A stretch of 64,000 nucleotides of DNA from Naegleria gruberi (taxonomy: Eukaryota), in assembly GCA_000004985.1 (NCBI GenBank), contig GG738874.1; one strand, 5' to 3'. The notes below the pieces were generated by a model. It saw only the letters and a list, made by a program, of their open reading frames with translations, did not search any database and was not told where the DNA came from. A program made the translations under genes and the position numbers. Of the stretch, positions 4,920 to 61,025 are shown in pieces. How positions within the stretch are numbered: the stretch's first letter is position 1; each line of letters starts with the position of its first letter.

Positions 4920-7900
4920 TTATTGTTGAAACTCTGATATTGGTTGATTATAAACAATTTCTGGAGGTGGAACAAGACCAAGAGTTAATTGTTGTTTTGG
5001 AACTTGTTGTTGTTGCAAAATTGGTTGTTTTGGTGGTGGTGGCATTCTCATTTGTTGTTGTTGGTAGTATTGTTGTTGTTGTTGTTGGTGAGGATTGAGA
5101 GGACGGTTGGAAGGAATGTTAGTACAGTTTGCTTGTTGATTTGTTTGTAAAACTATTGGAACATGTTGTGAATTCATTGGTAATACTTGAGCTGTTTGAT
5201 AGTGGTGATACATTTTCATCATTTTACCATTACTAGTTGACATGTAAAAACCACCATTAAAATTTGGACAATCTTTCATTAAATAATCATCAATAATCAT
5301 CTTGTAAGAATCCAATGAACCATTTAACTCTGATTTAAATATTACATAATTTAACATTGGACATCCATCAAAATGTGCTTGATGAATAATATCATTCATA
5401 CAAGTATTTCCATAATTACTACCACTGCTACCACTAGTGCAACTACCACTACTGCTACTACTACAAGTGGATGATGATCTTGACATTGTTACTGATGGTA
5501 ATTGTGGACAATTTTGAACTTGAAGTAATTTCAATTTGTATGTTTCTAATTGAATATGATTCTTCAATTGTGAATTATTTCTTAAAAATAATTTAGCAAG
5601 TGAATTGGAATGAATATATAAATTTTCTAACATGTTCAAATTCAATAATTGTAAACCCTTAATTGAATTATTATGAATATGTGGTGATACAAGTGCATGA
5701 CAATTTGATAAAACCAATGCTTGTAATCTTGATGCATTTTCTTCACTTAAATATTCATTCAATACTTGATCTGTTAAATGAGCAGCATTAGAAATACTCA
5801 AATATTCAACATTTTTAAAAAATTGAAACAAGTTATTCATTCTATCATTTGGATAAACACAAAGTGAAATTGCAACCTTTGATAAATTACTTGTACCTAA
5901 AAGGTTAATATTTTCTAATATTTTACAATCAGTAAGATTCAATGAATTTAAATTTGGACAATTTAAATTTAAATTTCTAATATTTACACATCTAGAAATT
6001 TGTAAATTAGAAAAATCATTACCACAATTAATTGAAAGTGTATGTAATATTGGATGTCCTTCAGATGGTAATTTAAATAAAACTAATTCTGTTAATTTTG
6101 GTAATTGTGTTAATTCTAATTCTGTTAATTGATTACAAGCATCAATACTAACAGATTCAAGTTTTGAACAATTATTAAATTTGATAAATGTTAATTGATC
6201 ACACATAAACAATTGAACACTTGTTAAAAGTTTTGAACTCAAATTAAATTGAGTAACACTTTGTAAATCCAAAATATCTAACTTTTCACATCTATCAAGT
6301 GCTGTTACAATTTTATCATTTTGGAAAATGTTCAATGAACTTGATCTAATACTAAATGTTTCAATAGTTAATTCAGAATCTTCAATAATTGGCAAATCAA
6401 GTTGTGAAATGGATTCAAACTTTAAAAGTGAAATCTTCTTATTACTATTAGAACCAAATATTAAATTAGATAACTTGTTTAACTTGGAAATTGAAATACT
6501 TGTAATATTTGAATTATTAATAGATACAGGTTGTGAAATGATAGTATTTTCATTACATTCAAGTTTAATTTGTTCCAAGCATTCCAAACCATTCAATACT
6601 TTAGTTAGCATTAAAGAATTAACATCATTCCAATTTGAAATGTGTAAATTCTTTAAATATTTAAACTTTTTAACAAACAAGTTAACATTTTCATAATTAT
6701 CAACACCTAAAAATCTAACAACAAGTGTTGATAACTTGTCTGCCTTGCTATTAGTAGCAATTTCACATAATTGTTCGTTATTAATAGAGAACTTTGGAGT
6801 GTTTAAGCACTTGAGTGTTTTTAAATTTTTACAATTTCTTAATAAAAAGTTAACATGATCAAAAGTAACACTCTTAACATGATCCAAGTTTAAATGTTCT
6901 AATCTATCAGCAATACTTGTTAAAATAGGTTCAATATGTTCAATTTCTAATGTGCTAGCATCAATATCAATCAAAGCTTTACAAGTTTTACAAATTTGTA
7001 ACAAGGCTTCTGACTTGAGTTGACAAGATGTTAATTGATTATTAATTAATGTTGCTCTATTAACAATCTTGATCTTTTTTAAATTAGTATAAATAGAAAG
7101 GAATTGTGCAAGTGAGGCTTGATCAATTGAATACAAAATTAATTGTTCAAAAGGAGAAGCAACATTATACATTCCAAATACTTGATAATGGAATAAAACT
7201 AAAGCATTCATAGAAACCAATGATGGAATCAATTTGGTAATATCTTCGTTACGCCATAACAAATTTGTTCTACTTGTACGATGGAAATGTTTTGAAACTT
7301 TACCAACACTCTTGATCAACTCAATTCTATTAATAAAAGACATTATTTGATATAAAACTTGTGCTGGAATTATTCCCAACTTCCATTTTGTTGTTCTTGT
7401 TAAAGAGGCTATCGAAGTAGAAGATTCTATTTTAACCTTCTTACATTGTTGTGTATCTTCTAATAAATTATTGGAGGTGTTGAAAATATCTTCTGTGGCG
7501 CTAATTTCATCGTTTGAACGTTTTCTTAATGCTGATGATGATTCATCGTTACTTGTTGTTATCATATGGGCGGTATTGGAGAAGAGAGAAAATGGTGGTT
7601 GGTTAAAGTTTGTTGGTTGGGATTGTGGTGGATAGAGAATTGTACTAGTTGGAATTTGGAAAGAAGGGAATGAAAAGAATCGATTATTATTATTATTCAT
7701 GGTACTATTATTTTGTTGTTGTTGTTGATAGTGAGGAGGATAAGAAAACATTGTATTTATATTAGTGATGTTATTATTGTTATAATTTGAACCATTATTT
7801 TGATGAGATGGTGGAGCAAGAATAACACTTGAAGCAATTTGATGGGAAGGAGTTATTGTTGATGAGTAATGTTGTTGTTGAGGAGTAGATGTTGTGGTGA

Positions 7901-8042
7901 ATTGATTGTTCATTTTTTCCAATTGGATTCCCATTGAAAAATCAAGCCTTTCGCTGCCAGGTTTGATAAATCTTTCCTCTGTCGTCAAGTAGCGTTCTAT
8001 TTTAAATTCCTTTTCATGCGAAGTGTTCCTGCTATTCGTCAT
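4920..8042 (-). CDS. F-box / leucine-rich-repeat protein (FBXL-like, Cys-containing LRRs) with N/Q-rich N-terminal region
   Basis: 1040-aa intronless ORF; ATG at 8040-8042. F-box-like segment WKLGIIPAQVLYQIMSFINRIELIKSVGKVSKHF. Long array of LxxLxLxxCxxL-type repeats (LEHLNLDHVKSVT, LKTLKCLN, LDILDLQSVTQ, LTELELTQLPKLTEL...). poly-Q/N and poly-S low complexity. Confidence 0.65.
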   Translation of the reverse strand: MTNSRNTSHEKEFKIERYLTTEERFIKPGSERLDFSMGIQLEKMNNQFTTTSTPQQQHYSSTITPSHQIASSVILAPPSHQNNGSNYNNNNITNINTMFSYPPHYQQQQQNNSTMNNNNNRFFSFPSFQIPTSTILYPPQSQPTNFNQPPFSLFSNTAHMITTSNDESSSALRKRSNDEISATEDIFNTSNNLLEDTQQCKKVKIESSTSIASLTRTTKWKLGIIPAQVLYQIMSFINRIELIKSVGKVSKHFHRTSRTNLLWRNEDITKLIPSLVSMNALVLFHYQVFGMYNVASPFEQLILYSIDQASLAQFLSIYTNLKKIKIVNRATLINNQLTSCQLKSEALLQICKTCKALIDIDASTLEIEHIEPILTSIADRLEHLNLDHVKSVTFDHVNFLLRNCKNLKTLKCLNTPKFSINNEQLCEIATNSKADKLSTLVVRFLGVDNYENVNLFVKKFKYLKNLHISNWNDVNSLMLTKVLNGLECLEQIKLECNENTIISQPVSINNSNITSISISKLNKLSNLIFGSNSNKKISLLKFESISQLDLPIIEDSELTIETFSIRSSSLNIFQNDKIVTALDRCEKLDILDLQSVTQFNLSSKLLTSVQLFMCDQLTFIKFNNCSKLESVSIDACNQLTELELTQLPKLTELVLFKLPSEGHPILHTLSINCGNDFSNLQISRCVNIRNLNLNCPNLNSLNLTDCKILENINLLGTSNLSKVAISLCVYPNDRMNNLFQFFKNVEYLSISNAAHLTDQVLNEYLSEENASRLQALVLSNCHALVSPHIHNNSIKGLQLLNLNMLENLYIHSNSLAKLFLRNNSQLKNHIQLETYKLKLLQVQNCPQLPSVTMSRSSSTCSSSSSGSCTSGSSGSNYGNTCMNDIIHQAHFDGCPMLNYVIFKSELNGSLDSYKMIIDDYLMKDCPNFNGGFYMSTSNGKMMKMYHHYQTAQVLPMNSQHVPIVLQTNQQANCTNIPSNRPLNPHQQQQQQYYQQQQMRMPPPPKQPILQQQQVPKQQLTLGLVPPPEIVYNQPISEFQQ

Positions 8043-8577
8043 CCGTTAGAAGAAGAATTTCAAGGAGCGAGGAGTAGTAGCCTTGTCGTGTGAGGTGTTC
8101 ATTTGCTGTCAGTAACATTCTAATAGAAGATTTTGCAACAAATGTTACGTAATAAGGAGGACCTCATACAAACTCCTACCATTCGGAGAGCTAATCAAAT
8201 ACAATGCATTGTATCATTAATTGGAAGATGATGTGTCAGTATTAGATTGCATATTACTTTTGGTTGGATCAGTAAAAAAAAGTGATAATGGATTACATTA
8301 GAAGAGGAATTAGAATCGAAATACACGTGTCTGTAATATTTTGGTGATTCAGATATCCTCTCTGAATTGATAAGTCAGAGATTGGAAAGTAACTTGGAAA
8401 CTTAATGTTCCAATACAAGTTCATTATAATATTCTAATACCTCTCTGTGTTGGTGTTCATAGTTTAATTGATCTTCTAAAATGTTATTAGATTGTTATCA
8501 GATTCAAGACTCAATTTATTCACATTATTCATATAACAAGTTCAATTAAATTTATTGGAAGTTTGTATTTGATGAAA

Positions 8578-8632
8578 TTTGGCGCCTTAATTATTGTACA
8601 TTTAATCATCTACAATAACGAAGTTTGGCGCC
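8578..8632 (+). promoter_or_regulatory. two E2F-like TTTGGCGCC motifs 26 and 72 bp upstream of the 8658 ATG
   Basis: tttggcgcc at 8578-8586 and 8624-8632. E2F consensus TTTSGCGC. Confidence 0.35.
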
Positions 8633-8657
8633 ATTTTTAAAAAATAAAATATAAAAA

Positions 8658-10346
8658 ATGTCTCAAGGTTCTCCACAGGTTTTGTTTGAGGACGCTAAGG
8701 CCTATTTGCAAACAACAAATGAAAATGGAAAATCCATTTATGATATGTTAATAGATATTGTTTCATATTTACAGGATCATAAGGATGCTAAGGAAATTAA
8801 TTTAAAAAAACTTGTTGAACAATTATCCGAAGATGGATTTAAATATGGAGAACGATCAGGATTTGATGAATTATGGAAATTATCTAAACCTAATCCCGAG
8901 TCATGCAATAAAGCTAGAGAAATAGTGGAGGTTCTTTCAAAACAACAAAATGTAATGAAGGAAGAATTCTCAAAGAGAAAAAAAGCAATTGAAGAATTGA
9001 ATGTAAAGAAAGATGGTGATGATGATAATCAAGATGATCCAGTAGAAGAAAATCCAGATATTATGTATTTGTACAGTAACGAAGATGGTGTTTCTAATTT
9101 GATTGAGGATTTTTATGCTTTAGAATTAGTAGGAGTAGGTTTGCCACATGAGGAAATTGCGAAACTTTCAGTTGCTATTCAAAATTTGAAATCATCAAAG
9201 TCTTTACGGTATTTAAGATTTGTAGGAAAAATACTAGGAATTGAATCGCATTACTATGTTGTTGAAAGTAATTACTACTTTAAAGAAAAAGTTCCACAAG
9301 ATAAAATTCATGAAAGTGGAGGTAAAGCTGGTTTAAATAGATTTACATATTGGGTATTGAGATCTAAGGATTCATTGACTAATTTTGTAAATTTACCTGA
9401 TGTAACACCTCAACAAATTAATGCTGCAAGAAATATTTCAAAATTATTTACAGGTAATTTAGAAAAGGAAATTATTTCATATCCTCCATTCCCAGGTAAT
9501 GAAGCAAATTACTTGAGAGCTCAAATAGCAAGAATTGTGCATTCAACAACTATTGCACCATTTGATCTATTTGAAGAGAGAGAAGTAACAGAAGCCAATG
9601 ACGAAGATGATGACGATTCAAATGAAAAGAAGAAGAAGAATGAAATTAAATATAAGGAAGTATTACCTCCACCAGTTAAAACCAAAGCATTTGAATTGAA
9701 AGATCCAGAAGGAATGAAATCACTTGAACATTGGGTTCATCTCTATCCAGGTATTTTGAAATCAGGATTTATTACTAAGGAACCACTTCCTGGTGATCAA
9801 GAACCAGCTGATCCAGAGGATGATAAAGATCCAGAAGTACCAAGTTTCAAATTATTACAGGAAGATGATGGTCTCAAAAAATGTAAAGAGGCAGGAGCTT
9901 CACCAAAGAAAAAGTCAGAAGATGATGATAATGATGACGATGGAGAAAATAAGGAAGCAAAACTTTCATGTTGGAAAGTTAGTTTCAGTAATGTGAGAAA
10001 ACAGACATGTCATCACAAATCATTCAAAGTGGTTATGCTTAGTAGTTTGAGATGGCAAGGTGCTCACACATTTTATAGAAATATTGGACCAATTTGTCAT
10101 TTTGGTAATGTGTACATTGGATATGGTATTAAGAATACTGGTATTCCTTACACTCCAATTCTTCCTTCAAAGGTTGTTGAAGATGTTAAAGAACCAGTTG
10201 ACCAAGTGGATCCAAAACCAAATGATGCTAAGAGAATGTTACAAGGTCTTGAACCAACTAGTGAAGATAAACCAGAGGATGATAATCCAAATGACGACGA
10301 AGATGGAGGTAATGATAATGATCCTGAAGAAGAGGATGATGAATAA
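8658..10346 (+). CDS. acidic protein resembling radial spoke head protein 4/6 (RSPH4A/RSPH6A family)
   Basis: 562-aa ORF; ATG at 8658 in aaaaaATG context. N-terminal block FEDAKAYLQTTNENGKSIYDMLIDIVSYL and C-terminal block LSSLRWQGAHTFYRNIGPICHFGNVYIGYGIKN match my memory of Radial_spoke family conserved regions. Asp/Glu-rich termini are typical of RSP4/6. The call rests on recollection, not a search. Confidence 0.5.
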   Translation: MSQGSPQVLFEDAKAYLQTTNENGKSIYDMLIDIVSYLQDHKDAKEINLKKLVEQLSEDGFKYGERSGFDELWKLSKPNPESCNKAREIVEVLSKQQNVMKEEFSKRKKAIEELNVKKDGDDDNQDDPVEENPDIMYLYSNEDGVSNLIEDFYALELVGVGLPHEEIAKLSVAIQNLKSSKSLRYLRFVGKILGIESHYYVVESNYYFKEKVPQDKIHESGGKAGLNRFTYWVLRSKDSLTNFVNLPDVTPQQINAARNISKLFTGNLEKEIISYPPFPGNEANYLRAQIARIVHSTTIAPFDLFEEREVTEANDEDDDDSNEKKKKNEIKYKEVLPPPVKTKAFELKDPEGMKSLEHWVHLYPGILKSGFITKEPLPGDQEPADPEDDKDPEVPSFKLLQEDDGLKKCKEAGASPKKKSEDDDNDDDGENKEAKLSCWKVSFSNVRKQTCHHKSFKVVMLSSLRWQGAHTFYRNIGPICHFGNVYIGYGIKNTGIPYTPILPSKVVEDVKEPVDQVDPKPNDAKRMLQGLEPTSEDKPEDDNPNDDEDGGNDNDPEEEDDE

Positions 10347-10361
10347 AAATGTTTATTATAA

Positions 10362-13300
10362 TTACATGAGTTTCTTAACTTCATTGTGTAAGATGACTAA
10401 AAAATCAGAGTATGACTTATCAACTGGACTTGATGAAATTCCAGAACCAAACTTATCTTCAACCATTCTAATAAAGAATGATCCATCTGTTCCTTCATTA
10501 CTTTCCTTATAAATATAAATTCCACCATGTTGAACACCTCTGGAAATTAATTCCTTTACAATGAATTGAACCTTACTAGAATAAGGAGCATTAGGAATTG
10601 ATAAATCATCAACATTTAAATTTTCTAACATTGAGAATACAGGTTTAGAAGTTGAAAGTGTAATTTGATCGATAGAATCAACTCCAAATAATTCTTGAAT
10701 TCTATCTTGAGGAGCATCTTTACCAATCCAGAATAAACATTCATTTCCATCACTCATTAAATAAATTCCATCAGAAGAAACAATACTTGATGAAGGAGGT
10801 AAAATTGGTGGCATTGGATATCTTGAACCATCACTATTATATGATATTGGAATAATTTCATCTTGTTCATTATCTTCTTGATCATGTACTTCATCATTGA
10901 AAGTTAAATTTTGAATTTCATATAAACGTGGATAACAATAATTAATAGCTTGAGCACATGAAAATTTCATCAATAAATGGAAAGAATGAATTTTCTTATC
11001 AAGTGAAACACGTGTATAACGACAGAAAGCAGGTGATTTTGCTAAACCTAAAAAGTATAAAGGTAAATATTTCAAAGTTTCAGGTAAAACTAAATGACTT
11101 GATCCAGAATTTGTTGTACAATTCTTTCTATAACATGCTAATAAATTTGTTAATCTATCACAAATCATATCACGAACAGTATCTAAAGTATCTCTATTTT
11201 GAATTACTTGATGAACAAATAAACGTGAATAAAGAGCTAAACAAGCACCAATATCAGATCTTCTATATAAAGTATTAAAATCAGTTGCAGTTTTCAATTT
11301 TAAAGTTTGAACACGTAAATATCTTTTACCATCAGATGAATTTGTATAAACAAGTGCACATTGAATATAATGATTACCAGATTCACTTGCACCTAATAAA
11401 TTACTTTCATCATGTTTAAATTCAACACCAAATGATGTATCAGAATCAATAACTGCCAAATCCATAACTTCATCTTGTTGTTGTAAAAAGTGACCAAAAT
11501 ATCTTCTAATACCAATACCACTACTTGTTCTAATTTTGAAAATTGCATCATAACCTGATTCTCTTTCTAAATGTCTATTTAAATCTAAAATTAAACGTTC
11601 TTCATCTCTTTTAACACTAAATTGATGATATAAATAAACATGTCCACCTGTTGTTTGTGCTGCTGATGATAAATTAGCTGTTTCTATATATGTTTTTGGG
11701 AATAGGAAAATATCAATACCAATAGCCTTCTTAGCACATGAAATTCCTAAATTCTTCCAAAATCCTAATTCTGGAATGAAAATTTCCTTCTCTCTATCTG
11801 TACCATATAATTTATATGGATTTCTTCTTTCTTGATCAGATTCAGAGGCATTTGGTCCAAGAGTAAAATTACCTTGTCCCAAAGTTGGAATTTTTGAAGT
11901 GAAAAGTAAAACTCTACCACCACTTTCACTCAATAATTCTTCTGCACATTTCATTGCACTACCTGCAACATTATCATTGGAACGTTCACCAAGTTTTGAT
12001 GCTGTTTCATAGAAACGATTAAAAAATTCATCAACTTGTTCATGATTAACATGTTCACTACTTGTTGATGATCCATAAATAATATCACCAAATGTAATGG
12101 AAGCTTCTTGATGAATTGGTACAAATGAATTTTGTAAATCTGCAACAATCATCACTTGAGGATGAACATGTTTGATTTCACTTGTGTTATTATTATTATT
12201 ATTACCATTGTTACCAATATTATTATTGTTATTACTATTAATTGTATTATTATTAGATTTTCTAAAATTATAAAATTGAATATTCTTTGCAAAAGTAATA
12301 AAAACAACGTTGGAATTTCTAAATTTTGGACCAAAAGTTTTGAAACAAGTTTTTAAACCTTCAATAACAGATCTTAAAAGACCAGATTCAATAGCATCAT
12401 GACCAACATCAATAACATAAACAAATGTTTGTGGTTTTGGTTCTCTTGCCTTACTATTATATTGTTGAGTTGCAATAAAATCAACATCACCAACACTTAA
12501 TTCTGGTCTTTGTAAAATATCAGTTCTAACACCATAAACATCTGTTGGACAATAATACCAATCAGGTGTATTATTTGAAAATCCACAAAAATTACATTGA
12601 TACTTCTTTCCATTATCAACAAATTTCATAAATGGATTCATATAAGCTCTACATCTTGAACATCTTAAAATTTCATAATTAGTAAAATCAACAATTGGAG
12701 TATGATTTGGTTGATCTTGTGGATTTAAATTTGCCATTGGTTGAACAATTGCACCCATCATTAATTGTGATGCATCAAGTAATTTCTTTGTATTTGGAAC
12801 ACAATAAAGAGTTGGTCTAATACGATGTGGTGTACATGATCCTCTACAAATAATTTTCATTCTTCTATCTGCTGGTGGAGGTGGTACATTAAAATAAGGT
12901 GTAATATTTGATGTATTGGGTCCTTGTTGAATAGCATTAGTATTGAATGGTAAATTTGGACTAGATGATCCAAATAATCCACTTAAAACACCTCCTCCAT
13001 TGTTATTAGTGTTATTGTTATTGTTATTCATTTGTTGTGATTGACCTCCCAATGCAAAATTATTCAATGTTGATGAAGATCCTAAACTTGTAACTGGACT
13101 ATTCATTGAATTTGTTAACATGTAATGTTCTAAAAAGCTTGCTGTTTCATATTCATGCATTGTAGTATGTTCTTTCAATGGTAATATAGCTGGTGTTGGC
13201 ATGGAAGAGGCTTTTTGTACCTTTTTAGGAACACCTAAATTATTAGGAGTATTTTGAGTAGTAGGTGTAGTAGTACTTTGATCTGGTATCATTGAGTTTG

Positions 13301-13886
13301 TAGTAGAAAAACCAGAATTGGATGATACTTGTTGTTGTTGCATAAAACCTTGTTGTTGTTGTACCAATGGAGTTGAGAAGGAAGAAACATGTGGATGTGC
13401 AGAAGTAGCAGATGTTTGTCCAGTAGAATCTCTTGGATCAAAACTTAAACTTGTTGGTGGAGGTGGTAAGGCTGCTGTTGTTGTATTAGTAGTACCCATC
13501 ATACTTGTTGGAGTTGAAGGATTATTCATCATTGGATTAAAGAATTGTTGTTGCTGTTGATGAGGAATATTCATTGTAGGAGGTGGAGTTGTAGTTGTAT
13601 TACTACCCATCATCATTGGATTATAAAAACCTTGTGTTGATTGTTGTTGTTGTTGTTGATTCATCATTGGATTGTAAAAGCCTTGTTGTTGTTGTTGAGG
13701 ATTGAAAAAACCACCAACAGTAGGACTTTCAGTAGCTTGTTGTTGTTGTGGATTATAAAAGCCTTGTTGTTGTTGACCAAATCCACCATTGTTATCACCA
13801 CCACCCATTGTTGATGATGATGGTTGTTGTGGTGGTTGTTGTTGTTGATTCAACGCAGTGTTCGGCATAAAAAATTGTTGAGACAT
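10362..13886 (-). CDS. COPII vesicle coat subunit Sec24
   Basis: 1174-aa intronless ORF. Q/P/N-rich N-terminus. Sec23/24 zinc finger (YQCNFCGFSNNTPDWYYCPTD; CSRCRAYMNPFMKF), then trunk, beta-barrel, helical and gelsolin-like regions with good conservation (GGRVLLFTS, IRTSSGIGIRRYFGHF). Confidence 0.85.
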   Translation of the reverse strand: MSQQFFMPNTALNQQQQPPQQPSSSTMGGGDNNGGFGQQQQGFYNPQQQQATESPTVGGFFNPQQQQQGFYNPMMNQQQQQQSTQGFYNPMMMGSNTTTTPPPTMNIPHQQQQQFFNPMMNNPSTPTSMMGTTNTTTAALPPPPTSLSFDPRDSTGQTSATSAHPHVSSFSTPLVQQQQGFMQQQQVSSNSGFSTTNSMIPDQSTTTPTTQNTPNNLGVPKKVQKASSMPTPAILPLKEHTTMHEYETASFLEHYMLTNSMNSPVTSLGSSSTLNNFALGGQSQQMNNNNNNTNNNGGGVLSGLFGSSSPNLPFNTNAIQQGPNTSNITPYFNVPPPPADRRMKIICRGSCTPHRIRPTLYCVPNTKKLLDASQLMMGAIVQPMANLNPQDQPNHTPIVDFTNYEILRCSRCRAYMNPFMKFVDNGKKYQCNFCGFSNNTPDWYYCPTDVYGVRTDILQRPELSVGDVDFIATQQYNSKAREPKPQTFVYVIDVGHDAIESGLLRSVIEGLKTCFKTFGPKFRNSNVVFITFAKNIQFYNFRKSNNNTINSNNNNNIGNNGNNNNNNTSEIKHVHPQVMIVADLQNSFVPIHQEASITFGDIIYGSSTSSEHVNHEQVDEFFNRFYETASKLGERSNDNVAGSAMKCAEELLSESGGRVLLFTSKIPTLGQGNFTLGPNASESDQERRNPYKLYGTDREKEIFIPELGFWKNLGISCAKKAIGIDIFLFPKTYIETANLSSAAQTTGGHVYLYHQFSVKRDEERLILDLNRHLERESGYDAIFKIRTSSGIGIRRYFGHFLQQQDEVMDLAVIDSDTSFGVEFKHDESNLLGASESGNHYIQCALVYTNSSDGKRYLRVQTLKLKTATDFNTLYRRSDIGACLALYSRLFVHQVIQNRDTLDTVRDMICDRLTNLLACYRKNCTTNSGSSHLVLPETLKYLPLYFLGLAKSPAFCRYTRVSLDKKIHSFHLLMKFSCAQAINYCYPRLYEIQNLTFNDEVHDQEDNEQDEIIPISYNSDGSRYPMPPILPPSSSIVSSDGIYLMSDGNECLFWIGKDAPQDRIQELFGVDSIDQITLSTSKPVFSMLENLNVDDLSIPNAPYSSKVQFIVKELISRGVQHGGIYIYKESNEGTDGSFFIRMVEDKFGSGISSSPVDKSYSDFLVILHNEVKKLM

Positions 13887-15944: not shown

Positions 15945-17267
15945 TTATTTCTTATTGGCATTCAATCTTTCAATAGCTTTTTCTCTAATCTTTTGTACAG
16001 GAAGAGGGAAATCTTCTTCAATTTGTTTGAGAGATTCTTTTGTTAACACGTACAAATCGCAATATGTACCAGCTCTTACTGAAGCCATTCTAGTTTGGTC
16101 CATAATCACACTGATTTCACCAAAGAATTTACCAGCATCCAATGTTGCTAATACTTTTGGTTCAGGATCTTCAGTAACAACTTGAACATAACCTTTCAAA
16201 ATAAAGTACATTTCTCTTCCAATTTCACCCTTCTTCACAATCTTAGTTCCTGGCAAAACGACTTGAGGTCTGAGAGCCATGACCATTGATGTAATAAATG
16301 TTTTGTTAGCACCTTCGACTTTAAACAAATCGACTTTCTCAATAAGTTCAGCATTCATTGAAAGATAAATTTCAGATTGTAAATACCAAGGAAGATCTTC
16401 TAATACAAGAGTTTCATCCCAACCAGATCTAGCTTTCCAAACGAAATGATAATATCTTTCAATTTTTCCTCTAATAGTTTCTGGAATCTTTCTATAGGTC
16501 ATGTACTGCTTGAGAGAGTCAAGCTTTTGCTTTCTCTTTGATTTTTCTTGATTGCTTGATTCTAAAATGTTACCCACGGCACCGACGACTAAAATCACTA
16601 GAGCTACACCTACAATATTACAAGCTTGAGAAAAGACACATTGACTAATTGTAACAGGAGATGAACCCCCATAACCTGTCATGGAAGTAAGGACCCACAT
16701 AAATCCTCTGATATATCTCGACATGGCACCAGGAATTGATTTATCTTGGATAATGGTCGATTTCTGTGTCCATACCTGAACTGTTTGAACTGGATCGGTC
16801 ATTACAATAATATACCAACCACAAGCTAAGCAGTGAGTTGCAATGAAGAAGTAAAACACGTATCTCAGAATTTGAATAGCAGTAATTGGAATAATTTCAA
16901 CTTCAGACTCAAACTGACTAAAGTACTGATTGATTCTGACAGCCCTAACACATCTAATCATTCTAATCCACATTCCCAATTTCAAATCAATTATCAATAA
17001 AACATAATCCAATGGTATCATGGATATTAAATCTGTGTAGAAGAAAAATGTTTTAACATATTTCTTTGAAATCATTTTGTAATCATAAATATATATACCA
17101 TCTGTTCCAGAAATTCTTTTAAAGAAACAGAGAATAAAGTCAAATAATAAAATAAGGTCAGCTGTCACATCAAATATTACCCAAATGCCTGACCATAATG
17201 GTTGATTCATGTATGTATACAAAGTAACTCTTAATGTTACTGTAAAGAAATTATAAAAAGTGGCCAA
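15945..17267 (-). CDS. cyclic-nucleotide-binding-domain K+ channel (S4-like segment, pore TSMTGYGG, C-linker + CNBD); N-terminal exon(s) probably upstream of 17267
   Basis: Arg-rich S4-like helix RMIRCVRAVRINQY. K+ selectivity signature LTSMTGYGGSSP. CNBD motifs FGEISVIMDQTRMASVRAGTYCDLYVLTKESL. The reading frame stays open upstream of the track start (the track's first residue is a TTG codon, no ATG), so a 5' exon is inferred. Confidence 0.65.
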   Translation of the reverse strand: MATFYNFFTVTLRVTLYTYMNQPLWSGIWVIFDVTADLILLFDFILCFFKRISGTDGIYIYDYKMISKKYVKTFFFYTDLISMIPLDYVLLIIDLKLGMWIRMIRCVRAVRINQYFSQFESEVEIIPITAIQILRYVFYFFIATHCLACGWYIIVMTDPVQTVQVWTQKSTIIQDKSIPGAMSRYIRGFMWVLTSMTGYGGSSPVTISQCVFSQACNIVGVALVILVVGAVGNILESSNQEKSKRKQKLDSLKQYMTYRKIPETIRGKIERYYHFVWKARSGWDETLVLEDLPWYLQSEIYLSMNAELIEKVDLFKVEGANKTFITSMVMALRPQVVLPGTKIVKKGEIGREMYFILKGYVQVVTEDPEPKVLATLDAGKFFGEISVIMDQTRMASVRAGTYCDLYVLTKESLKQIEEDFPLPVQKIREKAIERLNANKK

Positions 17268-17660
17268 GAAACAAAGGAATACCCAAAGTGTTGCTAATTT
17301 ATACCTCTCGGGTATTGTTAGTGGTTCTACTACTTGTGTTTTCCAATATCTAAATTGTTGTTTAAATTACTATTTGAAATTAAACCAACCTTTGAAATGT
17401 TTCCTTCCTTGATTCATGTTCTTCAACTTTAATTACTAATTGTTTATCCTTTCCGACTTCTTCCTATTATTATTGGTTTTTCATTAAGATGGATCTAAAT
17501 AGTGTGATCTTACCTCCTTCATCCACTTGGGTGGTTTTATTTCCTTCACCTTCTTCTTTGGTTTTTCAGGCTCTTTTGGTGGTTGTGTTGCAGCAGGAGG
17601 TGGTTGTGAACTCATTTTTCTTTATAAATTACTTTGTTGTTCAACTACAATGTTATCAAT

Positions 17661-17672
17661 TTTGGCGGGAAG
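17661..17672 (+). promoter_or_regulatory. E2F-like TTTGGCGGGAAG motif 12 bp upstream of the EF-hand gene ATG
   Basis: Matches the classical E2F site TTTGGCGGGAA. Confidence 0.35.
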
Positions 17673-17683
17673 AATTTAAAAAA

Positions 17684-18268
17684 ATGTCTCGACCAATTAT
17701 TACCACTTCTTCTTTTCCTCAGACAACAACAACAATACAGAGTCATAATATCAATGGAGGACGCATTGTCTCAATGACATCGGTGTTTGAAACACCTCTC
17801 ACCAATAGAATGAAAAGAGATATTGAAGAGATATTTGAATTGTATGATACCGATCGGAAGGGTTACCTAACTAAAATTGAATATAAATTAGCTTACATAT
17901 CACTCATGGGACATAAACCATCAAAGTTTGAAAGGAAGGAATTGTTTTCATCAAGTAGACCTGTAGTAAGGAGACAATTCTTCATGGAATTGATGAATAA
18001 GAAATTAATGAGATCTGATCAGCAAGATAGAATCAGAGAAATATTCAATACAATTGACAGTGAAAGGAAAGGCTTTATTACTCTTAAGGATTTAACTAGG
18101 AGTGTATCTGCAATTTTAAATTATGAAAAACAATTTGGAAAAGGAACAAATAGTTTATCAAGTTTAGGATTGGAATCTCTATTGACTGAATTTGATGTTG
18201 ATAGAGCAAATAGAATCAGTTATACTACATTTTGTTCATTAATTTTGAAAAATAATTTAACAGTGTAG
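17684..18268 (+). CDS. EF-hand calcium-binding protein
   Basis: ATG at 17684 (aaaaaaATG). Two clear EF-hand loops: YDTDRKGYLTKIEY and IDSERKGFITLKDL. The track ORF starts earlier at a non-ATG codon. Confidence 0.6.
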   Translation: MSRPIITTSSFPQTTTTIQSHNINGGRIVSMTSVFETPLTNRMKRDIEEIFELYDTDRKGYLTKIEYKLAYISLMGHKPSKFERKELFSSSRPVVRRQFFMELMNKKLMRSDQQDRIREIFNTIDSERKGFITLKDLTRSVSAILNYEKQFGKGTNSLSSLGLESLLTEFDVDRANRISYTTFCSLILKNNLTV

Positions 18269-18525: not shown

Positions 18526-18597
18526 AGCAAATTGGCGCAGTGGAAGCGCGATGGGCTCATAACCCATAGGTCCTAGGATCGAAACCTAGATTTGCTA
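18526..18597 (+). tRNA. initiator tRNA-Met (anticodon CAT)
   Basis: AGCAAAT acceptor stem pairing with ATTTGCT (A1:U72, the eukaryotic initiator hallmark). D-arm GCGC/AGTGGAA/GCGC. Anticodon arm ATGGG-CTCATAA-CCCAT with three G:C pairs. T-arm CTAGG-ATCGAAA-CCTAG (A54/A60 initiator T-loop, AUCGAAA). Discriminator A. Confidence 0.85.
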
Positions 18598-32731: not shown

Positions 32732-35700
32732 ATGGAGGAAACACAACAAACACCTCAGCCAGAAGAAGAATCACGAACACAATCATCAAATATTGAGGAA
32801 GAAATTTCAACATCAGTCAATGAAGTTGTAAATTCTCAACCATCTGATGAGGCCTCAACAGCACTTCAACAAACTGAAGAACATCAAGATATTTCCAGTA
32901 AGGAACAACATGATGATGTTGATCACCAAGAAAACAACAATGAGAAGCCTCAAGAAAATGATACCTTAGTAGTTGAAGAAAATCCAGAAAATCATATGGA
33001 AGAAGAATACACCAGTGTTGGTCATTCTGTCAAAACAACCAATGATGAGAAGGAGGCTATTAGTGAAGAGATTTTAGAAACAACAAATAACGAGTTAATA
33101 TCTATTTCCCAAGCCTTGAATTACACTGCCGAAGGATTACATGAAAGTCATGAATACATTAACACTCTTACAGAACAAATTGAGGCAAAGAATAATGAAA
33201 TCCAGAAAGTAATGGAGGTATTAGAGGAACACAAATCAATTATTACTCAAAAGGATGACGAAATCTCAACAATTACTCAAGAATCCGAAAATACTAAAAA
33301 GTTATTGGGGCAGACAACATCTCAGATGAATACAATTTCCGAGAATTTGGCCAATGCTTTGGAGGAACTTTTAGAATCAGATCTCAAGTTGAAGGGGATT
33401 ACTAAGGAACTAACAGTCTCAAAGGAAGAAATTGAAAATTTGTCCAAAAGCATTTCAGAGAAAGAATCATTGATCGAAGAGCTCAACAATAATCTTGGTT
33501 CAGCAAAGGCAGAATTGGAAGCATCTAAGGAAGATGTTTCTTTAAAGAGTGCTATTATTGAACAATTAACTAGTGAGATTAATGTTGGAAAGGAAGCAAT
33601 TCAAAAATTAGAAGACAATGTCAATGAAAAGAGTCAAGAGGTTGATTCTTTAAGGTTGATTATTGAAGAAAAAGCTTCACTTAATGAACTATTGAAACAA
33701 CAAGTCGATGAAACAAAACAATCTCTTGAAGAAACTTTGAATAATTTAACAAAAGCAAAGGAAGAAATAGAAAGCGTAGAAAATTCTCTTAAGGAAACAA
33801 CTCAAAAGTTAGAAGAAACAAATACGCAACTCACATCATTGTCAAGCCAAGTTGAGCAAGACAAAGATGAGTTAAAACAGATTAGTGAAGAGCTTGAAAC
33901 TGTGAAAGAAAACTGTAGTCAAAAATCAGCTGAACTGGAGAAGACCATTTCAGAACTGAAAGAAACATCTGACAATTTGGAGGATCAAAAGAAAGTGCTT
34001 GAAGAAAAAACTCAAGAATTAACTTCCACAACAGAAGAGCTCTCTAAAACGAAATCATTATTGGAAAGCACTACCACTGAATTCAACGAAAAATTAAAAA
34101 TTGCTTCCGATAGTTTGCAAATAACTACCCAAGAACTCGAAGAAACCAAAGGAAAATTAGAACAAACCCAACAACAATTGGATAAAATGAGCTCTGAATT
34201 GGAAATTAAGACACAGGATCTTTCTCAGGCAATTGAAACTTTAGATCTCACAAATATCGAATTAAGTGAACTCAAAGAAACCATGTCAAATACTACCATT
34301 GAACTTGATAAAACGAAGGAGATTTTAAAGTCCACAAACGAAGAACTTTTGGCAACAAAAGAATCCCTTGAAACAACCAGTGAAGAATTGTCTACAACTA
34401 AAGACACGCTTGCAACAACAACCGAGGAGTTTTCTTTTACAATGGAACAATTAGATAATACTAAAAAAGAACTCTCTGAAACAACCACCAAATTAGAGGA
34501 AACATCTGCTGAATTGGTTTCTATTAAGGAGGATCTTTCCGACACAAGACAAAAGCTTGAATCTACTTGCGGTTTATTGTCTGAAACTCAAACCAAATTA
34601 GAAGAATCTAACAAAAATCTTGAAGATGCAAACTGTACAATCAAAACTACTGAAGATGAATTATCTAGTGTTAAGGGTGAACTTGAATCCACAGCAAAAA
34701 ATCTGGTTGACACCAAGCAAGAGCTTTCAGAAACTATTTCTGACTTGCAACAGACAAAAGAGAGTTTGTCAGAAACTAAGGAAACACTTGCAAGCACTGA
34801 GGATAACCTGCACAAAATAGAGGACGAGTTATCTCAATCAAGAACAACTTTATCAGAGACATCAGAAGAACTTATTGAGACAAAAAATAGGTTGACTGCC
34901 ACCTTGGATGAGCTTTCCACTACCAAAGAAGACCTTAGAAACACAGAAAAAGATCTTTCCCAAAGAACAAGCGATTTGGGAATGACTTCAATGGAATTAA
35001 TAAGCACAAAGGAAGAGCTTACAGAAACAAAACAAACACTCTCTCAAACTTCTGAAAATTTAGAAACTACAAAAACAACATTGGAAGAAACATCTTCCGA
35101 TCTTGAGAAAACAAAAGAAGAACTTGCAAAGAAAACTGAAAATCTGGAAGACACTACCAAAAATCTAGAGAGTACAAAAAGAACATTGGAGGAAACTTGC
35201 AAAGAACTTGAAGCAACAAACAACACACTTCTTAGTACTAGTGAAGAGCTAACTACAACAAAGACTGACCTCGAAAACACAAGGCAAACCCTAGTTGAGA
35301 CATGCTCTAACTTGGAAAACACTAAAGCAAAACTTCAAGATACTGAAATTACACTCACCGAAACAATCAATGTTCTTAATTCAACAAAGCAAGAGTTAGA
35401 TAGTACAAACGAAGAACTCTCAAATACCAAGAATTCTTTGAAAGCCACTGAGCTTGAATTGAGTGATACAAAGGAAAATCTTTCTAAAACTGGTGAAGAA
35501 CTTGTTCAAACTAAATTAACTCTTTCCTCAACTTCTGATGAATTAAGCAACACGAAACAAGCTTTATCTGCAACTACGGAAGATCTCAACAGTACAAGAG
35601 ACGTTCTGAAAAGTACTGAGAATGAGCTTTCTCAAAGAACAAGCGATTTGGGAATGACATCTATGGAATTAATAAGCACAAAGGAAGAGCTTACAGAGAC

Positions 35701-38170
35701 AAAACAAACACTCTCTCAAACCCGCGATACATTAAGATCCACTCAACAGTATTTAGAAGATACTAACACTTCACTGAACTCTGCAAATGAAACCATACGA
35801 ATTACAACAAAAGAACTTGAGAAAACTCAATCCGAACTCGATTTGACAAAGAAAAATCTTGACGTCACAACAACAGAATTACAAGACACAAAGGAGGCAT
35901 TTACCACAACCAAGTCAGATTTAGAGTCAAAACTTTCAGAAACCACTAACCAATTGAATAATACAACTGCCACTCTGAACGAAACTCAAACAACTCTTAC
36001 TCTAACTCAACAAACTCTTTCGTCAATCGAATCAGATTTAAATGGTACTAGAGAAACCCTAAACAAAACAAAGAATAATTTAGATGGCATGACTGACTCT
36101 TACGAATCAACTTTATCTGCTCTCAATCATACAAAACAAGTCTTACAAGAAACTGAAGAAAAGCTATCCGAAACTTGTAAAACTCTTGATGAACGAGTAT
36201 ATGAATTGAGTACTACTTCACAGATTCTTAAAAATACAAGAGACCTTCTTCAAAACACTGAAGAAAAGTTGAAGAGTAAAACTGAGGAATGGGAACTTTT
36301 GTTGGTGGTAAGATCTGAATTGGAGAAGGAACTTGAAGAAATGACCAACAAAAACACCAAAAATGAAGAAGAAATCAAAGAGTTACTCCACATCAAATCT
36401 GATCTCACTGCTGAACGAAATAAGTTGATTGAGAATCTCAACCAAACTACCTCTAATCTGAAGCAAACAGAACACACTCTTGAAGAAACAACTCAAAAAC
36501 TTAACATCACTGAAAATGTTCTTCAAGAAACCTCTATCACCCTTAAAGCAACAACAGAGGATCTGAATTGTAAAAATGAAAGATTGGAGCAAGCAGAAAA
36601 TTCTTTGGAGAGTTTGAGACAAAAATATGACACCTCTGTTAAAGAGTTGAAGGCAGCTCACATTACCATAGATCAAGCAAATGTTTTGGTATTGGAACAA
36701 CAAGAATCCCTCGCAGAAAGGCAGAGAAGCATTGATAAACTTGAGAATACAGTTGTTGAGCTTAATAAGATCATTAGTGAAAGGGATGAAACCATAAAAC
36801 AAAGAGATTCAACAATTAAGAGCCTTGAACAAGTCGTTGCAGAAAAAATAGGAATAATCAACGATAGAGATCAAGAAATAAGTGAAAGAATCGACAACCA
36901 CAACCAATTGTTCGCCGAGAAAACTAATCTTGATAGTGAAATAGCAAACTTGAAGTCTGAATATCAAAAACTGGATGAAATTTGTAATTTTAAGAAAGAA
37001 CAGCTTATCAAATCCCAAGTTATCATTACTAGTTGGATTGAAGAGAATAATGTCAAAGCCAAAACTATCGCACAACTTTACGAAATAGTCAATAAGAAGG
37101 ATTCAGAGATTGAAAATCTTTTCACTTCGGGCAATAAGATCATGGAAGGACTTAGTCTAGAAATTAAACAACTTGAAATCAAATTACAAGAAGCAAACAC
37201 TAATATACAATCATTAACTGATAAGGATAATGAAAATATGGATCAAATTCGTCAACTTTGGGAAAAGATTAAAGACAGAGACAATATAATCGAGGAGCAA
37301 ACAAGAGAAAGCATTAGAGTTGAGGAAGAAAAGAGATCCTCAGATGGTAAATTCAGAAAAGAGATTGAAAGACTCACAATGGTTGAAATGGATCTTGAAT
37401 ATGCTGTAAAGGAACGTGAAGATTCTTTGTTTGATATCAAGAAAGAAAATGAAAATCTTACACAACAACACATTGCCATCGATTTAGAAAACAAACAACT
37501 CAAACAACAATTCCAAATCAAACAAAAGAAAATTGAAGAGCTTAACCTTAAATTGGTTATGGAACAAAAAAGAAATGAAAGAAATGAGAAGGCCAAGTCA
37601 AGCTTTGTTAGAAATATAAGAGATAGAACTCTTGGTGCAACAACAGATGTAGATCAAAAGAATTTGTTGGTCATTCAAGATCTTGGAAAGAAGTATGACG
37701 ACCTCGCTCAAAAATATGAATTGCTTGTTACTGAAAGAAATGATTTAAAGAAATTGTGTAAATCTTTACAATATGCACTTGACAAGAAAGATGGTGAAGA
37801 TGGCAAGAGAATTCAAACATTAGAAAGCAAGTTGCAACAAGAACAAACAGAAAAGAATATCTTCAGAAACGAAAAGAAGGAAATTGAAAAAAAGATGGAA
37901 ACCATTTCAACAGAAAATAAGCAACTCAATTTGAACATGAATAGACTTCACAATACCACCACTCAAATGTTGAGAAAACAAGAAAAGATTACAACTTATT
38001 TGGACAACAATAACGAAGTAGTTTCTTCGTTTGCACTTTCACCAAGAGTTAAACCAACAACAAATATTCCATCAAATGTAGGAGCCAATTCTTTAGTTAG
38101 TCCAAGAAACTTAACTGGTGTCTCTAAACCATCAACACCAAGAATTGCTTCAACCAGATCAACCAAATAA
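32732..38170 (+). CDS. giant (1812 aa) coiled-coil protein with degenerate (T/S)xEEL(S/T)xTKxxL repeats and an S/T/P-rich C-terminal tail
   Basis: Intronless 5.4-kb ORF. Acidic N-terminus. About 1000 aa of 14-residue-type periodic repeats (TSEELSTTKDTLATTTEE..., TKQELSETISDLQQTKESL...). An internal near-identical duplication (LSQRTSDLGMTSMELISTKEELTETKQTLSQT at about 34960 and 35630). The tail PRVKPTTNIPSNVGANSLVSPRNLTGVSKPSTPRIASTRSTK. Confidence 0.6.
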   Translation: MEETQQTPQPEEESRTQSSNIEEEISTSVNEVVNSQPSDEASTALQQTEEHQDISSKEQHDDVDHQENNNEKPQENDTLVVEENPENHMEEEYTSVGHSVKTTNDEKEAISEEILETTNNELISISQALNYTAEGLHESHEYINTLTEQIEAKNNEIQKVMEVLEEHKSIITQKDDEISTITQESENTKKLLGQTTSQMNTISENLANALEELLESDLKLKGITKELTVSKEEIENLSKSISEKESLIEELNNNLGSAKAELEASKEDVSLKSAIIEQLTSEINVGKEAIQKLEDNVNEKSQEVDSLRLIIEEKASLNELLKQQVDETKQSLEETLNNLTKAKEEIESVENSLKETTQKLEETNTQLTSLSSQVEQDKDELKQISEELETVKENCSQKSAELEKTISELKETSDNLEDQKKVLEEKTQELTSTTEELSKTKSLLESTTTEFNEKLKIASDSLQITTQELEETKGKLEQTQQQLDKMSSELEIKTQDLSQAIETLDLTNIELSELKETMSNTTIELDKTKEILKSTNEELLATKESLETTSEELSTTKDTLATTTEEFSFTMEQLDNTKKELSETTTKLEETSAELVSIKEDLSDTRQKLESTCGLLSETQTKLEESNKNLEDANCTIKTTEDELSSVKGELESTAKNLVDTKQELSETISDLQQTKESLSETKETLASTEDNLHKIEDELSQSRTTLSETSEELIETKNRLTATLDELSTTKEDLRNTEKDLSQRTSDLGMTSMELISTKEELTETKQTLSQTSENLETTKTTLEETSSDLEKTKEELAKKTENLEDTTKNLESTKRTLEETCKELEATNNTLLSTSEELTTTKTDLENTRQTLVETCSNLENTKAKLQDTEITLTETINVLNSTKQELDSTNEELSNTKNSLKATELELSDTKENLSKTGEELVQTKLTLSSTSDELSNTKQALSATTEDLNSTRDVLKSTENELSQRTSDLGMTSMELISTKEELTETKQTLSQTRDTLRSTQQYLEDTNTSLNSANETIRITTKELEKTQSELDLTKKNLDVTTTELQDTKEAFTTTKSDLESKLSETTNQLNNTTATLNETQTTLTLTQQTLSSIESDLNGTRETLNKTKNNLDGMTDSYESTLSALNHTKQVLQETEEKLSETCKTLDERVYELSTTSQILKNTRDLLQNTEEKLKSKTEEWELLLVVRSELEKELEEMTNKNTKNEEEIKELLHIKSDLTAERNKLIENLNQTTSNLKQTEHTLEETTQKLNITENVLQETSITLKATTEDLNCKNERLEQAENSLESLRQKYDTSVKELKAAHITIDQANVLVLEQQESLAERQRSIDKLENTVVELNKIISERDETIKQRDSTIKSLEQVVAEKIGIINDRDQEISERIDNHNQLFAEKTNLDSEIANLKSEYQKLDEICNFKKEQLIKSQVIITSWIEENNVKAKTIAQLYEIVNKKDSEIENLFTSGNKIMEGLSLEIKQLEIKLQEANTNIQSLTDKDNENMDQIRQLWEKIKDRDNIIEEQTRESIRVEEEKRSSDGKFRKEIERLTMVEMDLEYAVKEREDSLFDIKKENENLTQQHIAIDLENKQLKQQFQIKQKKIEELNLKLVMEQKRNERNEKAKSSFVRNIRDRTLGATTDVDQKNLLVIQDLGKKYDDLAQKYELLVTERNDLKKLCKSLQYALDKKDGEDGKRIQTLESKLQQEQTEKNIFRNEKKEIEKKMETISTENKQLNLNMNRLHNTTTQMLRKQEKITTYLDNNNEVVSSFALSPRVKPTTNIPSNVGANSLVSPRNLTGVSKPSTPRIASTRSTK

Positions 38171-38782: not shown

Positions 38783-39477
38783 TTATTTCTTTTCACGTTT
38801 TTCCCTTTTGATTGTATCTGCTAACATATTTGCTATTTCAGATAATCTCTTATTTAACATTCCACTATTGGACGTTCCACCTAATATTGGAATAGAATAG
38901 GAAAATTGAACAGAGCTTTCTTTTGATTTTTTTAGTAATACATCCGAAGGAGCATTCAAAATTGGATCATAAAATAGTGGTGGAAGATTATCATCATCAA
39001 CTGTTGTTGCTTTCTTTGATGTTTTAGGCTTTGATCCCTTTGTTTTTTTCCTATTATTAAATCTTTCTATANAAATCATCCAATCCTAAANNNNNNNNNN
39101 NNNNNNNNNNNNNNNNNNNNNNNNNNNNNNNNNNNNNNNNGNATATGACACATAATAAACCATTTGATTAACAAGGAATGCAATGTCACTTAATTCCGAA
39201 TTAATATCTGGCAAAACAACATCAGTATCATAGGTTCCTCCAAAATTACAAAAGTTTCATCCTTAGGATCTCCAACAGACATTAAATCATATCGTTTTGT
39301 TGATGTGACTGTATAGAAAGGACTTCTCGGTATTGTTCGTTTTATTAATGTAAGTGAGGCTCTACTATTTTTTTGTGCAGCCAATTGTTGTTGTTGAAGT
39401 TGCTGCTGTTGTTGCAGGAGTAATTGTTGTTTGATTAATGAACTCATTTTTTTATGTAGTTTGTTTTGGCGGTTCAA
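38783..39477 (-). CDS. Q-rich hypothetical protein, interrupted by assembly gap (partial model joining ORFs 39190..39477 and 38783..39079)
   Basis: Two same-strand ORFs flank the N run 39091..39140. The N-terminal part carries (CAA/CAG)n poly-Q. The stop abuts the convergent gene 38194..38781 (1 nt between stop codons). Confidence 0.3.
39091..39140. other. assembly gap (50 N; isolated n also at 39072 and 39142)
   Basis: Run of n characters. Confidence 0.95.
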
Positions 39478-49158: not shown

Positions 49159-49170
49159 ATGGCGCCAAAA
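49159..49170 (+). promoter_or_regulatory. palindromic E2F-like motif ATGGCGCCAAAA 26 bp upstream of the 49196 ATG
   Basis: GGCGCCAAA is the reverse complement of TTTGGCGCC. Confidence 0.35.
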
Positions 49171-52784: not shown

Positions 52785-52902
52785 GGCTACGGCCATATCA
52801 CGATGAATGCACCTCATCCCGTCCGATTTGAGAAGTTAAGCATCGTCGAGCCACATCAGTACTGAGGTTGGAGACAACTTGGGAACCTGTGGTGCTGTAG
52901 TC
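52785..52902 (+). rRNA. 5S ribosomal RNA
   Basis: GGCTACGGCCATATCACGATGAATGCACCTCATCCCGTCCGATTTGAGAAGTTAAGCATCGTCGAGCCACATCAGTACTGAGGTTGGAGACAACTTGGGAACCTGTGGTGCTGTAGTC aligns position-for-position with canonical eukaryotic 5S (GTCTACGGCCATACCACCCTGAA...GGGTGCTGTAGGC). Helix I termini are complementary. Confidence 0.85.
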
Positions 52903-52907
52903 TTTTT
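52903..52907 (+). terminator. RNA polymerase III terminator (T5) of the 5S gene
   Basis: TTTTT immediately after the 5S 3' end. Confidence 0.7.
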
Positions 52908-57287: not shown

Positions 57288-57357
57288 TCGGGTGTGGTAT
57301 GTGGTAGCATTCCAGATTGTCACTCTGGCGACCCGGGTTCAATTCCCGGCACTCGAG
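57288..57357 (+). tRNA. tRNA-Asp (anticodon GTC)
   Basis: Acceptor TCGGGTG/CACTCGA (one G:U). Anticodon arm CCAGA-TTGTCAC-TCTGG. T-arm CCGGG-TTCAATT-CCCGG. Discriminator G. Short D-arm as in other tRNA-Asp. Confidence 0.8.
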
Positions 57358-61016: not shown

Positions 61017-61025
61017 TTTGGCGGC
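61017..61025 (+). promoter_or_regulatory. E2F-like TTTGGCGGC motif in the 56-bp divergent promoter shared by RFC2 (-) and the 61044 gene (+)
   Basis: ttttggcggcaag. RFC subunits are canonical E2F targets in other eukaryotes. Confidence 0.35.

Follow-up and report, generated by a model that had tools for sequence, protein, structure and literature searches.

A radial spoke head gene of the RSP4/6 family in Naegleria gruberi and an E2F-like element upstream of it

We analysed a stretch of 64,000 nucleotides (nt) of Naegleria gruberi DNA (contig GG738874.1 of assembly GCA_000004985.1), called here the window. The gene at positions 8658 to 10346 on its plus strand encodes a radial spoke head protein of the RSP4/6 (RSPH4A/RSPH6A) family, and it is very probably an intact, functional gene for one of two RSP4/6-family head subunits in the temporary flagella of N. 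gruberi. The gene had been annotated before in this species and is expected in a known flagellate. Taken alone it is of small importance: it confirms the N. gruberi source and shows that earlier taxonomic reasoning, made from the DNA letters only, was sound. That reasoning, hereafter the original prediction, had pointed to an amoeboflagellate heterolobosean and not to a dictyostelid.

The gene is a single unbroken open reading frame (ORF) of 562 codons from ATG to stop, and no competing ORF of more than 150 amino acids (aa) lies at 8658..10346 on either strand. The G+C content of the coding sequence is 32.7%, compared with about 30% for the window overall, and a 562-codon ORF at ~32% G+C is far beyond chance length. 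Its product and the N. gruberi protein EFC43249.1 / XP_002675993.1 (NAEGRDRAFT_49798) agree at each of their 562 residues (100% identity); UniProt names the latter 'Radial spokehead-like protein' (D2VID9). NAEGRDRAFT_49798 is carried on an N. gruberi scaffold of 401,612 bp, and three further ORFs of the window encode proteins identical to N. gruberi proteins of this scaffold. Consequently, the window is N. gruberi nuclear DNA, from the kind of organism that the original prediction had supposed. A reading of the spoke gene as a contaminant was rejected. The annotated model is the plain ORF, and the alignment starts at the same place in four of five orthologues and ends at the same place in all of them, which indicates that the gene is complete and intronless.

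Family membership was established by profile, sequence and structure searches. Radial_spoke (PF04712) is the only Pfam family matched, with 347.5 bits over a cut-off of 25.7 (E 2e-103), in two stretches of which the best spans profile positions 217-492 of 493. Compared by phmmer with all PDB chains (threshold E<=0.01), the protein matched nine sequences and 9/9 are RSP4/6-type chains. The top match is Trypanosoma brucei 9e5c_2m (157 bits, E 5.7e-45), and the others include T. brucei 9e5c_2q, human RSPH4A (8j07_G), bovine RSPH6A (9fqr_FP), mouse RSPH4A (7dmp_B) and Chlamydomonas RSP4 and RSP6. Both the profile search and the comparison with known RSP4/6 proteins had been proposed as checks in the original prediction, and both came out in its favour. 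An AlphaFold2 model, built from a 58-sequence, eukaryote-wide alignment, reached a mean predicted local distance difference test score (pLDDT) of 78 and a predicted template modelling score of 0.68, with pLDDT 91-98 in the core and the low-confidence parts falling on acidic inserts. According to this model, the RSP4/6 fold is present as an N-terminal helical arm and an alpha/beta head core. When the model was searched against the PDB by Foldseek, ranks 1-22 were RSP4/6-type chains (E 6e-29 to 7e-20), with a template modelling score (TM-score) normalised to the target of up to 0.83, and beyond the presumed RSP9 chains of ranks 23-40, discussed below, nothing reached E<1. The 58-sequence alignment has 16 invariant and 23 near-invariant columns, all kept in the Naegleria protein, including the invariant residues G190, Y199, R287, W466, G468, Y486, G488 and G490. 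The analysis thus shows that the protein belongs to the RSP4/6 family and has its fold, that the gene is complete and is the annotated one, and, as described below, that it is conserved in Naegleria and Willaertia and has a second paralogue.

The coding sequence and the segments of its product are listed here.

8658..10346, plus strand: complete single-exon coding sequence (562 aa and stop) of the RSP4/6-family head protein, called here paralogue A (ORF, PF04712, full-length identity)
8658..9017, plus strand: N-terminal helical region, aa 1-120, with the motif FEDAKAYLQ...SIYDMLIDIVSYL (nt 8685-8771); AlphaFold2 helices at aa 6-17, 27-40, 49-64, 69-75 and 80-120
9012..9098, plus strand: first acidic loop or linker (loop 1), aa 119-147; net charge -11 over aa 121-150, with low pLDDT at aa 124-131
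9099..9560, plus strand: alpha/beta head core, first half, aa 148-301; invariant columns, pLDDT mostly 91-98
9561..9665, plus strand: disordered insert, first acidic and then basic, aa 302-336 (...EANDEDDDDSNEKKKKNEIKYKE...); net charge -8 over aa 301-330, pLDDT <50 at aa 325-336
9783..9962, plus strand: long surface loop, acidic and rich in lysine, aa 376-435; net charge -9 over aa 376-405, pLDDT 58-88
9963..10157, plus strand: C-terminal part of the head core, a beta-sheet block, aa 436-500, which holds LRWQGAHTFYRNIGPICHFGNVYIGYGIKN; strands at aa 439-443, 458-463, 469-476 and 479-488, pLDDT up to 97
10233..10343, plus strand: acidic tail at the C-terminus, aa 526-562; up to 12 D/E per 20 aa, pLDDT <50 at aa 539-558

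The original prediction had singled out an N-terminal and a C-terminal block as RSP4/6-like, and both lie on conserved family columns of the 58-sequence alignment. At the N-terminus, FEDAKAYLQTT (aa 10-20, nt 8685-8717) and IYDMLIDIVSYL (aa 27-38, nt 8736-8771) fit the family consensus AKAxLxxxxxxGxSLYDHL, and this motif aligns to residues 11-46 of T. brucei 9e5c_2m. By homology, the N-terminal helical region would extend from the head towards the spoke neck. The C-terminal block LRWQGAHTFYRNIGPICHFGNVYIGYGIKN (aa 464-493, nt 10047-10136) holds the invariant W466, G468, Y486, G488 and G490. Between them, aa 148-301 is the stretch best conserved with the T. brucei, human and Chlamydomonas chains, with invariants at G159, G190, Y199, N227, L246, G266, E282, L286, R287 and I293.

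Acidic residues outnumber basic ones (111 D/E, 75 K/R), and the net charge of -36 makes this a strongly acidic protein. Its C-terminus (aa 526-562) is indeed an acidic tail, as had been claimed; the same claim does not hold for the N-terminus, which is not acidic, and the other acidic stretches are internal. Acidic segments at aa 119-150, 301-330, 376-435 and 526-562 coincide with low pLDDT. Loop 1 keeps its composition among orthologues while its sequence varies, the family consensus is E-rich at the positions of both the aa 302-336 insert and the surface loop (which contains a DDDNDDD run at aa 421-430), and the C-terminal tail is acidic in 5/5 Naegleria and Willaertia orthologues with no conservation of its sequence. 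Net negative charge is found family-wide, from -19 to -78 among the 13 proteins compared.

The original prediction also held that the host builds 9+2 axonemes, and in electron micrographs the N. gruberi axoneme has nine doublets with a central pair (PMC11772885). As for other axonemal genes, the third check it had proposed, the N. gruberi genome encodes six inner-arm and four outer-arm dyneins, CPC1/SPEF2, PF16/SPAG6 and microtubule inner proteins, a set that is for the most part induced when cells differentiate (PMC10802493). It also encodes an orthologue of outer-arm LC4 (PMC4415241). Among the 31 ORFs of at least 180 aa in the window no other axonemal Pfam family was found, which is no counter-evidence since eukaryotic flagellar genes are dispersed. 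RSP4/6 proteins are almost exclusive to flagellate species (PMC10309588). The same paper describes the core of each head lobe as an RSP4/6-RSP9 tetramer; summarising Grossman-Haham 2021 and Gui 2021, it also places the acidic loops of Chlamydomonas RSP4 and RSP6 on the side facing the central pair, where they are thought to act electrostatically in beat control.

With the core, the helical arm and the acidic loops and tail all kept, the product is expected to be a structural head subunit contacting the central apparatus. By homology with other spoke proteins, it would be made after the amoeba-to-flagellate differentiation starts and imported into the growing 9+2 axoneme. There, its alpha/beta core would pair with a second N. 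gruberi paralogue and with RSP9 to form each spoke head lobe, the N-terminal helices would point towards the neck and stalk, and the disordered acidic loops and C-terminal tail would give the head a negative surface facing the central-pair projections.

That second RSP4/6 member, paralogue B (P0121, 494 aa, 'predicted protein'), is encoded elsewhere in the N. gruberi genome and is 28% identical to paralogue A. It is devoid of long acidic inserts (no 20-aa window with at least 10 D/E), and it has orthologues in N. fowleri, in a Naegleria contig from the European Nucleotide Archive (ENA) and in Willaertia. The two paralogues differ in their preference for the T. brucei head subunits. In phmmer comparisons paralogue A gives 157 bits with chain 2m and 119 bits with chain 2q, and paralogue B gives 76.5 bits with 2m and 126 bits with 2q. 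Neighbour joining, a distance-based method in which long-branch effects are possible, was run on 454 trimmed columns with 200 bootstraps; the tree grouped A with Leishmania, Lotmaria and T. brucei 2m in 193/200 bootstraps and B with T. brucei 2q in 161/200; the T. brucei sequences in it are partial, taken from HMMER alignments. A clade of A and B was recovered in 0/100 bootstraps of a separate neighbour-joining run. Because the T. brucei head subunit that A groups with is not the one that B groups with, the simplest reading suggests that the duplication is older than the split of Heterolobosea and Euglenozoa. An asymmetric, heterodimeric spoke head would then probably be ancestral to Discoba and not a kinetoplastid novelty.

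Among the nearest known kin of paralogue A are T. brucei 9e5c_2m ('flagellar radial spoke component, putative'), its best sequence match with a solved structure, and the orthologue of that chain in Leishmania, which is annotated RSP4/6. The match with 9e5c_2m takes in the N-terminal motif together with the core and the C-terminal block, with long acidic inserts at the same positions; identity is nevertheless only ~37% over trimmed alignment columns, and the kinetoplastid proteins are more acidic, with net charges of about -70 to -78 compared with -36 in Naegleria A. Chlamydomonas RSP4 and RSP6 (7jtk, 7jr9, 7jrj) share PF04712 and the fold, with a TM-score to target of 0.76-0.83 for minimal-head chains, while their phmmer matches are partial (~83-103 bits). 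The Chlamydomonas head lobe is described in PMC10309588 as a heterodimeric pair plus RSP9, with acidic loops facing the central pair. Unlike what is suggested for Naegleria A/B, however, the RSP4/RSP6 pair is reported to be a lineage-specific duplication (PMC10309588), and thus neither RSP4 nor RSP6 is a one-to-one orthologue of A or B. Paralogue B resembles A as a member of the same family in the same organism and is its presumed head-lobe partner; its orthologous genes carry the same upstream SCGCCAAA motif, described below.

Human RSPH4A/RSPH6A (8j07), with the bovine (9fqr) and mouse (7dmp) chains, belong to the spoke head core and were the top Foldseek matches (E 6e-29; phmmer ~113-118 bits). 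They differ from the Naegleria protein by a long additional N-terminal extension (716 aa), and the 4A/6A split is a separate duplication. Mutations in RSPH4A cause primary ciliary dyskinesia. The same disease results from RSPH9 mutations (PMC10309588). According to bioRxiv 867192, mammalian heads differ in composition from those of protists.

Paralogue A of N. gruberi has orthologues in four other vahlkampfiid genomes or contigs, at the following levels of identity.

N. lovaniensis: 60-62%
N. fowleri: 59-60%
ENA Naegleria-like contig: 58-59%
Willaertia magna: 49-51%

The alignment of Naegleria and Willaertia orthologues contains 130+ invariant positions. This conservation bears on the possibility that A is a decaying, non-functional copy with paralogue B doing the work. 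Such a view could appeal to the existence of two paralogues and to the low identity between them. Yet the 562-codon ORF is unbroken, the four orthologues are full-length, the kinetoplastid A-type orthologue is built into the spoke (9e5c_2m), and both copies have been kept since an ancient duplication; we regard decay as extremely improbable. Just as improbable is that the protein is an RSP9-type head protein and not an RSP4/6-type one. Both types belong to PF04712 and have a common core fold, and Foldseek ranks 23-40 are occupied by shorter chains (~240-310 residues) belonging to the radial-spoke and axoneme entries already matched; we take these chains to be RSP9, the results naming the entries only. 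These presumed RSP9 chains, however, score E 1e-7 to 4e-12, far behind the RSP4/6-type chains of ranks 1-22, and no RSP9 chain is among the phmmer matches to the PDB at E<=0.01, all of which are RSP4/6-type. Moreover, the protein has 562 aa against 276 aa in RSPH9, and its conserved N-terminal helical region aligns with that of the RSP4/6-type 9e5c_2m.

A gene retained but repurposed, acting mainly outside the flagellum, for instance in the amoeba mitotic spindle, deserves slightly more attention and is still very unlikely. Some central-pair genes of N. gruberi (CPC1/SPEF2, PF16/SPAG6) are up in mitosis as well as in differentiation (PMC10802493), and E2F-like promoter elements, such as those found upstream of the spoke gene, mark cell-cycle genes in other eukaryotes. 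Against this, N. gruberi builds 9+2 flagella, the family-invariant core residues and the acidic loops are all kept, both paralogues are conserved in flagellate Naegleria and Willaertia, the near confinement of RSP4/6 to flagellate species (PMC10309588) argues for a flagellar role, and there is no hint of an additional role for the spoke gene. The original prediction had allowed for a non-flagellate host with a retained or repurposed spoke protein, a case that does not apply in a species that builds flagella.

Several points weigh against the proposal that paralogue A is a working head subunit of the N. gruberi spoke. A search with human RSPH9 as bait yielded no N. gruberi RSP9, as all of the 120 matches listed are vertebrate, and RSP3 was likewise not retrieved. 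A full-text literature search by NAEGRDRAFT_49798, which did not extend to the published microarray (PMC2987438) and RNA-seq tables, found no gene-specific evidence on expression, localisation or knock-down. We infer the A/B heterodimer from Chlamydomonas and from the presence of both T. brucei paralogues in 9e5c; how the acidic loops are oriented in Naegleria is an assumption. Localisation, heterodimer formation, expression timing and the role of the acidic loops are thus proposed from homology.

Two copies of the same motif lie upstream of the spoke gene.

8578..8586, no strand assigned: candidate promoter element, distal copy of TTTGGCGCC (reverse strand GCGCCAAA), 80 bp before the ATG
8624..8632, no strand assigned: candidate promoter element, proximal copy of TTTGGCGCC, 34 bp before the ATG

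TTTGGCGCC has three copies in the 64-kb window, where 0.04 would be expected, and the looser SCGCCAAA (TTTGGCGS) has six, compared with 0.57 expected (8578-8586, 8624-8632, 17661-17668, 39465-39472, 49162-49169 and 61017-61024). All six are placed 16-80 bp upstream of the ATG of a plausible gene: the spoke gene (two copies), an EF-hand protein, the minus-strand gene from 39447, NAEGRDRAFT_80083 and a 567-aa protein from 61044. In seven orthologue and paralogue loci (51 kb in total) we found eight SCGCCAAA copies (L001:2979, L003:2976, L004:774, L005:2975, L006:2929, L007:2947, L008:2968 and L008:290), and each A or B spoke-head gene has exactly one of them, at a distance of 22-72 bp upstream; L006-L008 are the B loci. 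Conservation of the element before both spoke-head paralogues takes in N. gruberi, N. fowleri, N. lovaniensis, the ENA Naegleria contig and Willaertia; the eighth copy precedes a Willaertia WDR26-like (GID/CTLH) gene. The sequence around the element shows no obvious similarity between species upstream of the spoke-head genes.

The E2F-family consensus is GCGSSAAA / TTTSSCGC, as cited in PMC4862756. The spoke gene has two exact matches to it (GCGCCAAA) at -80 and -34, the A genes of N. fowleri and N. lovaniensis also match exactly, and four other loci have CCGCCAAA, with one mismatch. The element is conserved and non-random, a candidate promoter feature that is not exclusive to flagellar genes. 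We describe it as E2F-like only, a term that carries no claim of membership in E2F-regulated genes. A flagellum-specific element was considered and rejected, given its presence before the Willaertia WDR26-like gene and before window genes of unknown function. A literature search for a description of the element found no paper.

According to a 2025 review (PMC12183034), Naegleria is without RFX, FOXJ1 and XAP5, and its cilia-gene regulators are unidentified. It is tempting to propose that the element is part of a transcriptional switch for flagellar genes in the amoeba-to-flagellate transformation, an idea that we consider unlikely though worth stating. If true, an E2F/DP-type factor would have been recruited for ciliogenesis, echoing the E2F4/5-MCIDAS programme of animal multiciliated cells. 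In either case, the motif provides a concrete, testable candidate cis-element in Naegleria.

The EF-hand protein preceded by one of these copies is encoded at 17684-18268 (plus strand), with a likely true start at ATG 17684 (194 aa); the listed ORF starts at 17489. The element is at -16 to -23 of that ATG. Among PDB chains it matches Chlamydomonas centrin/caltractin best (E 1.7e-10) and calmodulins nearly as well, which suggests a divergent centrin/calmodulin-like protein.

The neighbourhood of the spoke gene is also conserved. The order F-box/LRR gene (minus), spoke gene (plus) and Sec24 (minus) is kept in N. fowleri, N. lovaniensis and the ENA Naegleria contig, and in Willaertia only the downstream Sec24 neighbour is kept. 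One intergenic feature is added to those given above.

8043..8657, no strand assigned: divergent intergenic region of 615 bp (ORF map), common to the spoke gene and the F-box/LRR gene (4920..8042, minus strand), presumed promoter

At the other end, the convergent stops of the spoke gene (plus) and Sec24 (10362..13886, minus) are 15 bp apart (10347-10361, AAATGTTTATTATAA), and therefore the 3' untranslated regions of both must overlap the adjoining coding sequence. The relatives (N. fowleri, N. lovaniensis, the ENA contig and Willaertia) have a similarly tight gap of 22-66 bp. As plain ORFs, F-box/LRR (4920-8042, minus) and Sec24 (10362-13886, minus) have no exact database protein match, and other starts or introns are probably used in the annotated models; each protein has a long N-terminal stretch of low complexity that is rich in Q/N. 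Rfam and ARAGORN searches gave no RNA genes within ~8 kb of the spoke gene.

Elsewhere in the window, an ORF at 15945-17267 (minus strand) has ion-transport and cyclic-nucleotide-binding domains, as in CNG/HCN-like channels, and is probably one exon of a larger gene, since its listed start is TTG. The 1812-aa ORF at 32732-38170 (plus) has weak matches to coiled-coil-type Pfam families (crescentin rod, TPR/MLP1, EzrA), all below the cut-offs, and its product may be a large coiled-coil structural protein. A run of N (assembly gap) at ~39086-39214 lies inside the minus-strand gene from 39447, and the translations show runs of X. The only RNA genes of the window are two tRNA genes, Met-CAT and Asp-GTC (18526-18597 and 57288-57357, both plus strand), and a 5S rRNA gene at 52785-52903 (plus strand, 105 bits), all three interspersed with protein-coding genes.

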